DNA from: Zygophlyctis sp. KS116
Lineage: Eukaryota > Fungi > Chytridiomycota
Reading direction: 5' to 3'
Assembly (NCBI GenBank): GCA_054661495.1
Contig: BAAFSQ010000457.1
Coordinates: forward strand, 1 to 6,013
DNA length: 6,013 bases
The notes under the pieces were generated by a model. It saw only the letters and a list, made by a program, of their open reading frames with translations. It made no database searches and was not told the DNA's origin. Below are positions 1,064 to 6,013 of the stretch, piece after piece. Each line of letters starts with the position of its first letter. Within the stretch, counting starts at the first letter, position 1. The position numbers and the translations under genes are program-made.

Positions 1064-2161
1064 ATGGATACCCCTATGGATACTACAGATAATATCCAAG
1101 CCCAAATGCAAGCCCAGAATCAATTACTGGCAGCTCAAAATGAGCTTTTAATTCAGCAGCTAGGAGAGCAAAGAGCTGCTCTTGAAAATTTAAGACGGGA
1201 AAATTCTCTAATGATGAATCCCGGATCCCAATTATCTTCTTTTTTATCAACTACAATTCAAAGTACGATAGAACAGACCCTTAAAGTTTCTTCAATGTCT
1301 AAAAGCGGGGGACGACCCCTAGAAGTTCCTAGCTATGATGGTACCTTGGGCATGCCTTGGAAAAACTTCAAGAACAAACTCTTAAATGAGTTAAATCGTC
1401 CAAATTCTTGCTATGCTAATATGAAATATTCATTTATGTACTCTAAGGCATCTGGCGACTTCTTAAAATATTTGGACTCTACTAATTTTGAATCCGAGGA
1501 TTTTGATGTCATTATTACGCGTCTAGACGACGTCTTTAGAGGGACTAATCCCCGTCTTGATGCTATTCGGAAGCTTGAAGAATTAGTAGTTAAAGGAACT
1601 ACTTTAGGTGGTCTAAGAGACTACTATTATACGTTTCGTAGTTTTCAAATCGAGACAGGTTATACCGCAAAGGATTTGTTTCAGAAATATATGGATGGCT
1701 TTGTGACAAGAAATAAGATTTTTATAAAAGCTAATTTTGCAAATGATACTATAAACTACAAGGAGAAATTGGAGGAGTTGAACCCTACTGATTTTAAAAC
1801 TCTCAGTGTCTATCAGGAAGAGTTGCTCAAATACGTTGAAGAATACTTAATCGCTACGTCTAGTTTATCGGATTCAGGTCTGGAGAGATCAATCAAAATT
1901 TCTGATATAAAGACACCTGCTAAAGATTTTATGGACCTATCGGCTCTTGACTTATCTGACCCAAAAGTTGTTAGTACAAGATTAAAGTTTTTATGCACAA
2001 AGAATGAACGGGGAACTTATCCACCGGTTCATGGGCACTCACAGGAGAAAAGGATGGATAGAAAGCTACTCGAAAAATATAATATTTATTTTGGATGTAG
2101 ACGTTCTTATAATCCCCCGCTACAATATCAGAAGCATAAGGAAAATTGCACTTTGGGGTGT
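1064..2161 (+). other. Gag region (N-terminal Gln-rich coiled coil, capsid-like domain, atypical nucleocapsid); boundaries approximate
   Basis: Lies before the protease. Has a heptad-like QAQNQLLAAQNELLIQQL stretch, a PSYDG motif resembling the PxxFxG capsid start, and FMDLS resembling the PMDLD/PMEID motif that precedes NC in Ty3/Gypsy Gag. Confidence 0.75.
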
Positions 2162-5100
2162 AATCTTAAATCTGGGACATCTGCAATTATGCTTATGGAT
2201 CTAGCTTCGTTGGGTATAGCCTCAGCCTCTGATTCAGAGTATGATTCTTTACGTTCTGATTTTATAGTTAATAAACCATCTGGCTCAGAAGTAAAATCTT
2301 GCTCAGAAGTGAATCAGAACGTAAAGAATAAATCTTTCTCTGAATTAAGCCATATTTGTAAACCAGACCTCATCCCGATCCCGTCTTCTGTTGTGGATCG
2401 TTTTTCTTTTACCATGTTTTGTTCGGAAATATCCTCTAATGTCTCTGTTTTGATCGATACCGGTGCTGTTTTAAATGTTATCAGTTTCGAGTTTGCAAAG
2501 CTTCATAATTTAACTCTCCAGCAAGGAAAAGAAATCAAAGTGAAGTTTGGTAACGGTTCTACGGCTCGGTCCTCTCATTGCACAATATTATCTATCAAAC
2601 AAGGCTCATATGTTCAAAAAATTGAGTTTTTTGTTGCAGACATACATTTACCTATGATATTAGGCATGCCATGGATCTCAGCGGTAGTGATCACCAAGAT
2701 TGATTGGTTAAATAAGGCGGTTCACTTTCATGATAGACAGGAACATCATTGTTTAATAGCCGATTCAAAGGACAAGGACATTGCACATTCTCTGCTACTT
2801 TCATCAATTGAATTTGAATCTGCAATCACTGAAGGCGAGTTTGAATCTTGGGGAATATTATCTTTGACAGATGTTGCCTCTAATTCCAAATTGCCGCCTA
2901 AAACTGATACTTTCAAATCCTCCAAATCCGAAACCTCTCGTGAACTCTCTGCCCTCCTTAAAGAATATGCGGATATATTTGTGAAGCCCACTCAGCCCCC
3001 TCCTTCTCGGCCTGAAGATCACGAAATTAAGATTATACCCGGCTCAAAATTGCCTGCAGTTCGAGGTATTGGACGATTGAATGATGGAAAACTGAAGATA
3101 TTAAAAGACACTCTGAATGATCTCTTGGAAAAAGGCTTTATACAATCGTCTCTCTCACCTTTTGGAACTAACATCTTGTTTGCTAAAAAACCAGATGGAT
3201 CTCTTAGGCTATGTGTCGATTACAGGGGACTTAATTCTATCACAGTGAAAAATAAGGCACCCTTGCCAAACTTGGGAGAGTTGAGAGATCGTGTTTCTAC
3301 AGCGAGATTCTTTAGCACAATGGATCTTCGGGACGGATTTTATAACATTCTGGTTAAAAAAGAGGACCGCCACAAAACCGCCTTTCGCACTCGGTATGGC
3401 CATTATGAATTTGTTGTTCTCCCGATGGGCCTCACTAATTCACCAGCTACCATGCAAACCATGATGAACCGTATTTTCGGTGAATTCTACGATTTATGGC
3501 TTCTCGGATATTTGGATGATCTGCTAGTCTATACTAAGGATATATCTACTCACTTAAATTCACTTAAAACGGTCTTTAATCTGCTACGAAAGCACAAACT
3601 TTTTCTTAAATTGGAGAAATGCACGTTTTTAGCAGATTCTGTCCGGTTCTGTGGCCACGTACTATCTAGTAATGGCATCAGTTTAAATATTGCTAAGCTT
3701 CCTGGCATTAATCGCGAAGCGCCTCGATCTCCCAAAGAAGTTCAGCAGTTTCTGGGTCTGGTCAACTGGTTCCGTGAATTCATTCCTCAGTGTGCAGAAA
3801 TATCCCAGCCACTCTCTCATCTTACTCGTAAAGATACTCCTTGGAAATGGGGGGCCAAAGAACAAACAGCGTTTCTCTCGCTATTACGTTGTCTACACTC
3901 TGCTCCTACTCTTAAGCACTACGAATCAGAACAACAGACTTACCTCTACACTGATGCCTCTGATTATGCCATTGGCGGATGGATCGGGCAATACGACTGC
4001 GATCGTAAATTGCGCCCTATCGTGTACTATTCTCGCAAAATGACGGCCCATGAACTCAAGTACCCGGTCCACGAAAAGGAATTGCTTGCAATAATCGCCA
4101 TGTTAGACCACCACGGAGCTTATCTGGCCTCGGGCGCTATTTGTCGCACTGATCACAAACCCCTCGTTTGGCTTCAATCTCAGCCCATATTATCTGGCAG
4201 ACAAGTACGTTGGGTCCTAAAACTTCAAGAATTTAATCTCCAAATCGAATATTTGCCCGGTAAACTGAATTCGGTAGCTGACTATCTAAGTCGCCAACCT
4301 AGTTTATCCCCAAAATGTCACTCTTGCCAAGCCCGCATTCCTAATTATGATCCCGAATCCAATCATATCGAATGTTTGACTATTGAAAACGACCAATTGG
4401 TCTCTATAGCCGTTGTTGATCTAGCCGGTGAACCGAAAGCCCAACAGCATGTGTTGTCTAATTTCCATGATAGAGCTCATCAGGGCATTAATCGCACTCT
4501 CAAATCCCTACGTAGATATTATACTTGGCCAAGCATGAAAAAATCAGTGAAAGAATATGTCGAAACTTGCGATGCTTGCCAGAGGTCAAAAGTTCGCAAT
4601 TCTAAGGCAGAAGGCCAGCTTCAATCTCTTCCTATTCCTTCACGCCGATTTAGTGTCATTGGCTTGGACTGGTTTTTCTTGCCCGCTGCTTCAACAAAAG
4701 AGGATTGTGTGATGATCATCGTGGATTATTTAACTAAGTTTGTAAAATTAATTCCTTGCAAATCAACGTCTGACTCTTCTACAATGGCCTCGTTATTCAA
4801 GCTCCACTGGCATGACCAGGGATTTGGTCTACCCAGCATGATTGTTTCGGATAGAGACTCAAAATTGACAAGTAAATTCTGGCAAAAATTATGTCTTATT
4901 CTAAACATTCAACGTAACTTGGCAACAGCACGGCATCAACAGACCAATGGTCAAGTGGAACGCACTATTCGTACAGTAAAACAGATGTTGATTGCTAACG
5001 ACGTTCACTCTAATTGGCTCAGCACTTTGTCGTCTGTTGAATATGCTATCAATGATTCAATCAGCCAGTCCACGGGATACACTCCGTTCTTTTTAACCTT

Positions 5101-5761
5101 TGGTCAGCATCCCGAATCTTTTACACTATCTCCAGAATTAAAGGAAATCGTTCCTGACTGGTCTAAATCTACGACAGAAGCTCAGAAAGCTATAAAAAAG
5201 GCACAGGATCACCAAGCAGCAGTGTATAATCTCAATCGCAAAGCTTCCTCTATAGCCGTTAATGATTTAGTCCTTTTGGAACGAGACGGCATAAATTGGT
5301 CTCCAGACTCCCAACTCTCCAAAAAATTATTGTCTCCATGGTTGGGTCCTTTTCGAGTCTTGGCTGTGGATGGATTAAATGCAACCTTAGAGTTGCCTCC
5401 TACTTCTAAACTTCATAATGTGTTCTCCGTTAACAAGTTAAAGCGCTATAATTCTGGGCCTGGTATTCCTCCTTCTCCTGATTTAATTGATGGGCAGTTT
5501 GAGTGGGAGGTCTCCAAAATCCTGGATCATCGGCAGTGGCAGTGGCGCAAACATTTACAATATCTAGTAGAATTCAAGGGATTGCACAAAGACACGAAGC
5601 AATGGCTATTTGCTGCAGATCTGAATCATTGCCAGGAGGCCATTGAAGATTATCTCTTGACCAAGGGGGGTGTAGCAGATCCTGCAGTTAAGGTCAAGGA
5701 TAAGAATGCCGAGGTTAAGGGGAAAATCAGAAAGCTCAAACTCCGACTGACCCAGACTTGA
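1064..5761 (+). CDS. Gag-Pol polyprotein (Gag, aspartic protease, reverse transcriptase, RNase H, integrase, chromodomain), 1565 aa
   Basis: Uninterrupted ORF with ATG in an A-rich context (TAAAAAATG). Motifs: LIDTGA and ILGMPW (PR); RLCVDYRGLN, DLRDGF, PMGL and YLDD (RT); TDAS, EKELLAI, TDH and ADYLSR (RH); HHCC, D,D35E and GPF (IN); EWEVSKILDHR...YLVEFKG (chromodomain). Confidence 0.97.
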   Translation: MDTPMDTTDNIQAQMQAQNQLLAAQNELLIQQLGEQRAALENLRRENSLMMNPGSQLSSFLSTTIQSTIEQTLKVSSMSKSGGRPLEVPSYDGTLGMPWKNFKNKLLNELNRPNSCYANMKYSFMYSKASGDFLKYLDSTNFESEDFDVIITRLDDVFRGTNPRLDAIRKLEELVVKGTTLGGLRDYYYTFRSFQIETGYTAKDLFQKYMDGFVTRNKIFIKANFANDTINYKEKLEELNPTDFKTLSVYQEELLKYVEEYLIATSSLSDSGLERSIKISDIKTPAKDFMDLSALDLSDPKVVSTRLKFLCTKNERGTYPPVHGHSQEKRMDRKLLEKYNIYFGCRRSYNPPLQYQKHKENCTLGCNLKSGTSAIMLMDLASLGIASASDSEYDSLRSDFIVNKPSGSEVKSCSEVNQNVKNKSFSELSHICKPDLIPIPSSVVDRFSFTMFCSEISSNVSVLIDTGAVLNVISFEFAKLHNLTLQQGKEIKVKFGNGSTARSSHCTILSIKQGSYVQKIEFFVADIHLPMILGMPWISAVVITKIDWLNKAVHFHDRQEHHCLIADSKDKDIAHSLLLSSIEFESAITEGEFESWGILSLTDVASNSKLPPKTDTFKSSKSETSRELSALLKEYADIFVKPTQPPPSRPEDHEIKIIPGSKLPAVRGIGRLNDGKLKILKDTLNDLLEKGFIQSSLSPFGTNILFAKKPDGSLRLCVDYRGLNSITVKNKAPLPNLGELRDRVSTARFFSTMDLRDGFYNILVKKEDRHKTAFRTRYGHYEFVVLPMGLTNSPATMQTMMNRIFGEFYDLWLLGYLDDLLVYTKDISTHLNSLKTVFNLLRKHKLFLKLEKCTFLADSVRFCGHVLSSNGISLNIAKLPGINREAPRSPKEVQQFLGLVNWFREFIPQCAEISQPLSHLTRKDTPWKWGAKEQTAFLSLLRCLHSAPTLKHYESEQQTYLYTDASDYAIGGWIGQYDCDRKLRPIVYYSRKMTAHELKYPVHEKELLAIIAMLDHHGAYLASGAICRTDHKPLVWLQSQPILSGRQVRWVLKLQEFNLQIEYLPGKLNSVADYLSRQPSLSPKCHSCQARIPNYDPESNHIECLTIENDQLVSIAVVDLAGEPKAQQHVLSNFHDRAHQGINRTLKSLRRYYTWPSMKKSVKEYVETCDACQRSKVRNSKAEGQLQSLPIPSRRFSVIGLDWFFLPAASTKEDCVMIIVDYLTKFVKLIPCKSTSDSSTMASLFKLHWHDQGFGLPSMIVSDRDSKLTSKFWQKLCLILNIQRNLATARHQQTNGQVERTIRTVKQMLIANDVHSNWLSTLSSVEYAINDSISQSTGYTPFFLTFGQHPESFTLSPELKEIVPDWSKSTTEAQKAIKKAQDHQAAVYNLNRKASSIAVNDLVLLERDGINWSPDSQLSKKLLSPWLGPFRVLAVDGLNATLELPPTSKLHNVFSVNKLKRYNSGPGIPPSPDLIDGQFEWEVSKILDHRQWQWRKHLQYLVEFKGLHKDTKQWLFAADLNHCQEAIEDYLLTKGGVADPAVKVKDKNAEVKGKIRKLKLRLTQT
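2441..2707 (+). other. Retropepsin aspartic protease domain (approximate)
   Basis: Catalytic DTG at 2456-2464, flap-like VKFGNG, ILGMPW at 2657-2674, then IDW. Confidence 0.92.
2954..3913 (+). other. Reverse transcriptase domain including thumb (approximate)
   Basis: KKPDGSLRLCVDYRGLN, TMDLRDGFYNI, KTAFRTRYGHYEF, PMGLTNSPAT, YLDD at 3509-3520, LKLEKCTF, FLGLVNWFREFI. Confidence 0.97.
3941..4294 (+). other. RNase H domain
   Basis: All four acidic residues present: TDASDYAIG (D at 3953), EKELLAI, TDHKPL, VADYLSR. Confidence 0.95.
4466..5449 (+). other. Integrase (HHCC zinc finger, DDE core, GPY/F module)
   Basis: H-x3-H-x29-C-x2-C at 4466-4579; GLDWF, IVSDRD and NGQVER with exactly 35 residues between the second D and E; PWLGPFRV...LELP...HNVFSVNKLKRY. 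Confidence 0.96.
5501..5656 (+). other. Chromodomain fused to integrase
   Basis: EWEVSKILDHR-x7-QYLVEFKG-x7-WLFAADLNHCQEAIEDY fits the chromodomain pattern EYEVEKILDHR...YLVKWKGY...WEPxxNL..C...I..F. Confidence 0.9.
5663..5670 (+). promoter_or_regulatory. Polypurine tract AAGGGGGG (plus-strand primer), lying inside the ORF
   Basis: Purine run directly abutting the TG of the 3' LTR; read as Lys-Gly-Gly codons. Confidence 0.85.
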
Positions 5762-5936
5762 CTTATACTTGACCCAGACTTGACTCAGACTTGACTCAAG
5801 AATACTTAAGAGTAAAACGCGTTCGCGTCCTTTAGAGGAATTAAATTCAATTCTAATTCTCTAAAGGTAAAATAAATTCAATTCTAATTCTCTAAAGATC
5901 TGAGAATACTAAGGCCAACAACCATAAACTGTTACA
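5671..5936 (+). repeat. 3' LTR, 266 bp
   Basis: Copy of 764-1029 at an offset of 4907 bp, immediately preceded by AAGGGGGG. Confidence 0.97.
5871..5876 (+). terminator. Candidate polyadenylation signal AATAAA in the 3' LTR (5' LTR copy at 964-969)
   Basis: AATAAA lies 60 nt before the LTR end, just downstream of a predicted hairpin. The position suits an R region, but the context is AT-rich. Confidence 0.4.
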
Positions 5937-5941
5937 AGAAA
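5937..5941 (+). repeat. Target-site duplication, right copy (AGAAA)
   Basis: AGAAA directly after the CA of the 3' LTR. A 5-bp TSD is typical of chromoviruses. Confidence 0.93.
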
Positions 5942-6013
5942 CAGGAGAAGAATTGATATTTTAAGATTCTCAATGGAAAATTCATTATTTCAATCTCAAG
6001 CTGCATTCTTAAC

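Follow-up and report, generated by a model that had tools for sequence, protein, structure and literature searches.

Organization of the element and its insertion site

The stretch of DNA analysed here (the window; 6,013 nt from Zygophlyctis sp. KS116) contains a complete, intact chromovirus-type Ty3/gypsy element, with all features described below on the forward strand. The element is bordered by a 5-nt target-site duplication, AGAAA, at positions 759–763 on the 5′ side and 5937–5941 on the 3′ side, and contigs resembling the empty site run on past position 763 with sequence like that from 5942 onward. The 5′ LTR (764–1029) and the 3′ LTR (5671–5936) are each 266 nt long, of the form TG...CA and identical to each other, which points to a recent insertion. 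A single gag-pol ORF of 1565 amino acids (1064–5761) encodes, according to Pfam, a protease, reverse transcriptase, RNase H, integrase, an SH3_Tf2-1 domain and a chromodomain. The integrase zinc-binding and core domains lie at 4436–4930 (PF17921, aa 1125–1177; PF00665, aa 1196–1289), followed by a Tf2-1-like C-terminal SH3 domain at 5264–5449 (PF24626, aa 1401–1462). The chromodomain at 5504–5653 has matches to Swi6, CDY and HP1 and scores 25.2 bits against PF00385 at the integrase C-terminus, with a cut-off of 25.1. LTRs, polypurine tract (PPT), target duplication, the order PR-RT-RH-IN and the C-terminal chromodomain are those of Ty3/gypsy chromoviruses.

The PPT, AA followed by six G (5663–5670), is read through in frame by the ORF, which continues for 29 amino acids and a stop codon (5672–5761). 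This tail has 9 basic and 3 acidic residues and lies entirely inside the LTR, as the initial annotation had described. Near its end is the sequence LKLRL (5735–5749), an alternation hydrophobic-K/R-hydrophobic-K/R-hydrophobic that makes it a candidate binding motif for extraterminal (ET) domains. An 11-nt tandem array (5740–5798) is the source of the terminal TQT and the stop codon in this copy.

No TGG tRNA-type primer site was found in the window element. Instead, nine bases at 1029–1037 are complementary to LTR positions 927–935, and this pairing falls within an imperfect inverted repeat at 922–960. Tf1-type elements are known to self-prime, and the analogy suggests that the window element may do so through the candidate site at 1029–1037. 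With self-priming, transcription would begin downstream of the tail, and the tail would thus lie in U3.

An 18-nt perfect inverted repeat with 50 nt between its arms (2244–2329) lies in the part of the ORF that separates gag from protease. The joints 1039–2198, 2252–2397, 4251–4922 and 4981–5599 recur as one set in three sequencing runs; this suggests, at the level of sequence, an internally deleted, non-autonomous derivative that retains the region just before the PPT. Sequence matching the element was found in freshwater, wetland, riverine and aquatic DNA runs and in one organism, and no RNA run was among the runs listed.

The flanks (1–763 and 5942–6013) are degenerate multi-copy repeat sequence without Pfam match, and none of the six flank ORF fragments had a Pfam match above the cut-off; no gene is recognisable at the site. 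The left flank matches many divergent contigs with a summed depth several-fold to tens-fold above that of the element interior, and we conclude from this that the window copy sits in a multi-copy repeat. This location carries small weight against promoter targeting, because it is one site and insertions survive in repeats.

The tail motif in a clade of related chromoviruses

Three homologue searches and one exhaustive search yielded 373 proteins. With the window element counted, a chromodomain was detectable in 260 of 374 proteins, and 19 of those 260, again including the window, were assigned to a clade with identities of 47% or more across the C-terminal part of the integrase (47–87% between the integrases). 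Eight more close matches, mostly fragments, were left out as they had no detectable chromodomain. In an integrase tree of 66 rows, comprising the 19 clade members and 47 of the 241 others, mostly unnamed relatives, with the tail left out of the alignment, the 19 group together on a single branch (SH-aLRT 100, by a quick method without bootstrap). An atlas lookup returned generic chromodomain clusters only. Metagenome contigs yielded one clade locus, L001; viral and prokaryotic contigs yielded none. The position of the tail in the LTR was read from DNA for the window, L001 and the aligned contigs; for most relatives it was deduced from the protein junction.

A tail of at least 8 amino acids is present in 16 of the 19 clade members, a proportion that the searches could slightly favour as their queries contained the tail. 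The five-residue alternation of hydrophobic and K/R residues occurs in 15 of these 16 tails; because the members share ancestry, this count represents one origin that was retained and not 15 events. As controls we used the tails of 8–80 residues from 201 of the 241 other chromodomain integrases, with 40 dropped, and found the pattern in a single one (P0193). Shuffled clade tails would be expected to give 0.36 matches in total, and 83 matches were counted in 332,913 body residues. The match in the window tail is weak on its own, because 4.6% of its shuffles yield the pattern; its retention among the tailed relatives is what raises the motif above chance, an explanation that the initial annotation had kept in play.

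The clade consensus is [IVL]-[KR]-[LIM]-[KR]-[LV], represented by 11 distinct five-mers, with K or R at both intervening positions in all 15 motif-bearing tails. Pairwise identity is 50% in the motif versus 10–16% in the spacer that separates it from the LTR edge. This spacer measures 9–25 amino acids and has 11 different lengths, with the motif in frame and usually 2–6 residues before the stop codon, and the tails are net basic across the clade. The initial annotation had proposed comparing relatives in these respects, and they do keep both the frame and the alternation while the spacer diverges. A separate tree branch of eight members shows a similar read-through of the PPT without the motif; read-through alone therefore does not yield it. 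Outside the clade, the chromoviruses P0193 (strict pattern) and P0051 (loose pattern) end in a similar alternating motif, and from their sequences these are possibly independent gains.

At the DNA level, whole codons are missing from the spacer of L001 relative to the window, and several motif codons of L001 differ from those of the window. Motif codons vary between families in general. Contig ends translated by eye revealed a synonymous CGA/AGA arginine change within the motif of the P0122-type tail in two runs, and two further families that end in alternating motifs. Among contigs aligned over 5540–5900, all 12 indels listed (6 more exist), a list that leaves out differences near contig ends, fall after the stop codon, and so does the DNA block common to the families. 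Codon variation together with the placement of indels after the stop favours selection on the peptide rather than on the DNA. Related copies lack 51–71 nt at the 11-nt array, and L001 lacks the array altogether. The initial annotation had likened LKLRLT, correctly placed at 5735–5752, to the end of integrase from murine leukemia virus (MLV); the likeness holds for the five-residue core, and the final T drops out of it, because the TQT comes from an array that related copies lack.

Relatives ending at the PPT or bearing unrelated tails, which the initial annotation had named as speaking against its reading, amount to just four of the 19. P0274, P0280 and P0323 end at the PPT junction, which sequence would lead one to expect if the G-run were one base shorter, and P0126 has a tail without the motif. 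P0323 carries an internal deletion, and a 4060-nt contig seems to hold both P0126 and a separate piece of integrase, so some of these exceptions may be decayed copies, while others could be active lineages that have no tail. The G-run of the PPT (5665–5670) sets the reading frame of the tail, and its length could switch the tail on and off or simply be a sign of decayed copies. At positions 517–1560 of L001, the LTR of a clade member is followed by a flavoprotein gene fragment (UDP-galactopyranose mutase/amine-oxidase-like), with a possible 24-nt intron and then protease-like sequence, and the contig end repeats the contig start. The fragment may be a captured host gene, the result of an insertion into a gene, or an assembly artefact.

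In an AlphaFold2 model based on an alignment of 19 sequences (pTM 0.39), the SH3 domain and the chromodomain fold, and pLDDT is below 50 over model residues 160–183. The tail itself has a pLDDT of 30–37 and no secondary structure, and is thus predicted to be disordered and accessible. We regard the tail motif with high confidence as a real, selected short linear motif that acts at the protein level and belongs to a distinct chromovirus clade.

Comparison with known integrase tails and chromodomains

The chromodomain of the window element has W/F/L at its cage positions and QWLF in place of TWEP. A full aromatic cage was found in 3 of the 19 clade members versus 196 of the 241 others, and the window element lacks the complete set of three cage aromatics that defines type I chromodomains. 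The initial annotation had called the domain weakened, and indeed the third cage residue is replaced clade-wide, as is TWEP; QWLF stands in its place in all 19 members and many other chromodomain columns are invariant. Because the replacing residues are themselves invariant, the domain is, as far as sequence conservation tells, remodelled under constraint and not decaying. The window copy also has an in-frame 6-nt duplication in a chromodomain loop (5534–5545; QW twice) that none of the aligned relatives shares; several aligned contigs have a 6-nt gap over this region.

Type I and type II chromodomain chromoviruses share with the clade the order PR-RT-RH-IN-chromodomain, the LTRs, the PPT and the 5-nt duplication (PMC3059260, PMC2864245). 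In contrast to both, the clade usually keeps the first cage aromatic and loses the third, a combination that fits neither type as these sources describe them, and it has the conserved tail motif in addition. Read-through into the LTR is already known from plant chromoviruses of CRM group A, where it carries a targeting element, the CR motif (PMC3059260). By its description there, however, the CR motif takes the place of the chromodomain and is associated with centromeres, whereas the clade keeps its chromodomain and adds an apparently unrelated short motif.

The MLV integrase ends in a tail of the form W-x7-PLK(I/L)R that is disordered when free and binds ET domains, in agreement with the C-terminus given in the initial annotation (PMC4027182). 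Its LKIRL interleaves with the acidic EIEID loop of the ET domain (bioRxiv 10.1101/2020.09.21.306696). ET ligands have further been described in the form K-phi-K-phi (PMC11939847) and as a core of five residues of which positions 2 and 4 are K/R (bioRxiv 2021.07.15.452438). The tail of the clade resembles that of MLV in being a flexible integrase C-terminus after the SH3 domain and in its alternating hydrophobic/basic five-residue core. The exact gammaretroviral PLK(I/L)R core occurs in P0122 (1 of 16 clade tails; none of 201 controls); the window tail is without it, and the clade tails other than P0122 carry conservative variants. The MLV tryptophan seven residues upstream was found in none of the 16 clade tails, and the 15 motif-bearing tails contain no tryptophan at all, which is why high-affinity hairpin binding is not expected. 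The clade differs from MLV also in being a Ty3/gypsy retrotransposon, in having a chromodomain between the SH3 domain and the tail, and in encoding the tail within the LTR, where MLV encodes it over env. Judged from sequence, the clade tail is thus like the MLV tail in position and pattern but falls outside the gammaretroviral W-x7-PLK(I/L)R class.

Ligands of the yeast Taf14 ET domain have the same five-residue alternation in a disordered region, and differ from the clade tails in that the latter are carried by a mobile element. The published consensus reads phi-x-phi-+-phi-+-phi, and neither Bdf1 nor Bdf2 was bound by the Sth1 ligand (PMC7442819). The seven-residue consensus fits 6 of the 16 clade tails, not including the window, and none of the 201 controls; in comparison with the Taf14 motif, 6 of 15 tails (first register) have Arg instead of Lys as their second residue, and the window has three in-register hydrophobics instead of four. 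As yeast BET and Taf14-type ET domains differ in their ligands, the pattern does not fix the partner.

In the available sections of PMC9609653, integrases of gammaretroviruses are reported to bind ET domains, whereas no such report is given for alpha-, beta-, delta- or lentiviruses. Gammaretroviruses are also the only group with ET-domain tethering of integration in the accessible parts of the literature covered, and the one review that deals with gypsy elements, BET proteins and chromodomains treats them, in the portion available, separately. The literature searched, which included few subscription papers, contained no ET-binding motif in any retrotransposon and no link of a retrotransposon integrase to Bdf1; this agrees with the initial annotation, which knew of no such description in a chromovirus.

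Candidate roles of the tail motif

We consider it probable that the tail motif is a tether to a host factor. From the pattern, an ET domain is the best-matching partner, an assignment that we hold about as readily as we doubt. In the proposed mechanism, the disordered, LTR-encoded tail would extend the integrase beyond the chromodomain, and the motif would dock in beta-strand form on the ET domain carried by a host chromatin protein of the BET or Taf14 type, with its K/R residues pairing with the acidic ET loop and its hydrophobic residues filling the groove, as may be expected from known ET structures. Docking would tether integration to chromatin bound by the ET-domain protein, supplementing or replacing methyl-lysine reading by the chromodomain, and would have arisen independently of gammaretroviruses. 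By analogy with MLV and Taf14 ligands, such docking and tethering may well take place, and we rate the case for it as evenly balanced. Scanning by pattern for an ET-domain gene turned up 4 matches in one scan and 6 in another; on translation, not one proved ET-like. A complex prediction of the element's own SH3-chromodomain part with the tail scored 0.02 and carries no weight either way.

The motif could also be a tether for another strand-binding module, chiefly the HP1/Swi6 chromoshadow dimer with its PxVxL-type ligands, which would direct integration to heterochromatin and repeats. For this reading, which we think unlikely but worth keeping in view, speak the position of the window copy in a multi-copy repeat, the fact that chromoviruses are known heterochromatin seekers (according to the title of a reference) and a relaxed PxVxL pattern, which fits 7 of the 16 clade tails against 6 of the 201 controls; the strict pattern occurs in 2 of 16. 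However, a proline precedes the motif at −1 or −2 in just 6 of 15 tails, and the only PxVxL match of the window falls outside the conserved motif. PxVxL ligands do not require K/R at the intervening positions, whereas the clade has the pair in 15 of 15. Among the other patterns, a dynein light-chain TQT motif was rejected, as it was found in 1 of 16 clade tails, that of the window, where it is made by the tandem array; PP1 RVxF (0 of 16) and an Asf1 B-domain-like pattern (3 of 16) were not favoured.

Slightly less likely still is a role within the element, in which the motif would bind the remodelled chromodomain or another integrase subunit, contact DNA or the nucleosome acidic patch, or serve nuclear import. 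The motif does co-occur with an invariant, clade-specific chromodomain surface (QWLF in 19 of 19) and the tails are net basic, but the single-chain model (19 sequences, pTM 0.39) shows no fold-back of the tail. A plain nuclear localization signal (NLS), which the initial annotation had mentioned, is disfavoured, since a classical NLS is no commoner in clade tails (3 of 16) than in controls (37 of 201), and neither import nor DNA binding needs a strict hydrophobic alternation. That the peptide is a by-product, either of LTR DNA kept as a cis-element or of a chance match, is very improbable: the shuffle rate of the single tail, the adjacency of the motif codons to the 11-nt array and DNA from few families would allow it, but the frame is kept over 11 spacer lengths, codons vary between families, and the listed indels lie after the stop codon.

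Taking the ET domain as partner, the clade would have evolved a gammaretroviral ET-docking motif within its LTR while rebuilding its chromodomain, and so have moved from reading a heterochromatin mark to BET/Taf14 proteins, converging with MLV down to the PLKIR core; we advance this wider scenario tentatively. If true, it would mean that one integration tether is convergent across very distant elements, extending ET-motif mimicry deep into eukaryotes, and it would provide a natural case of a chromovirus changing its targeting strategy. The comparable motif at the end of one or two unrelated chromoviruses (P0193 and, more loosely, P0051) would then mark a repeatedly evolved solution. Even with another partner, the five residues of the clade motif are a sharply bounded candidate for targeting, and peptides would allow an inexpensive test of it.
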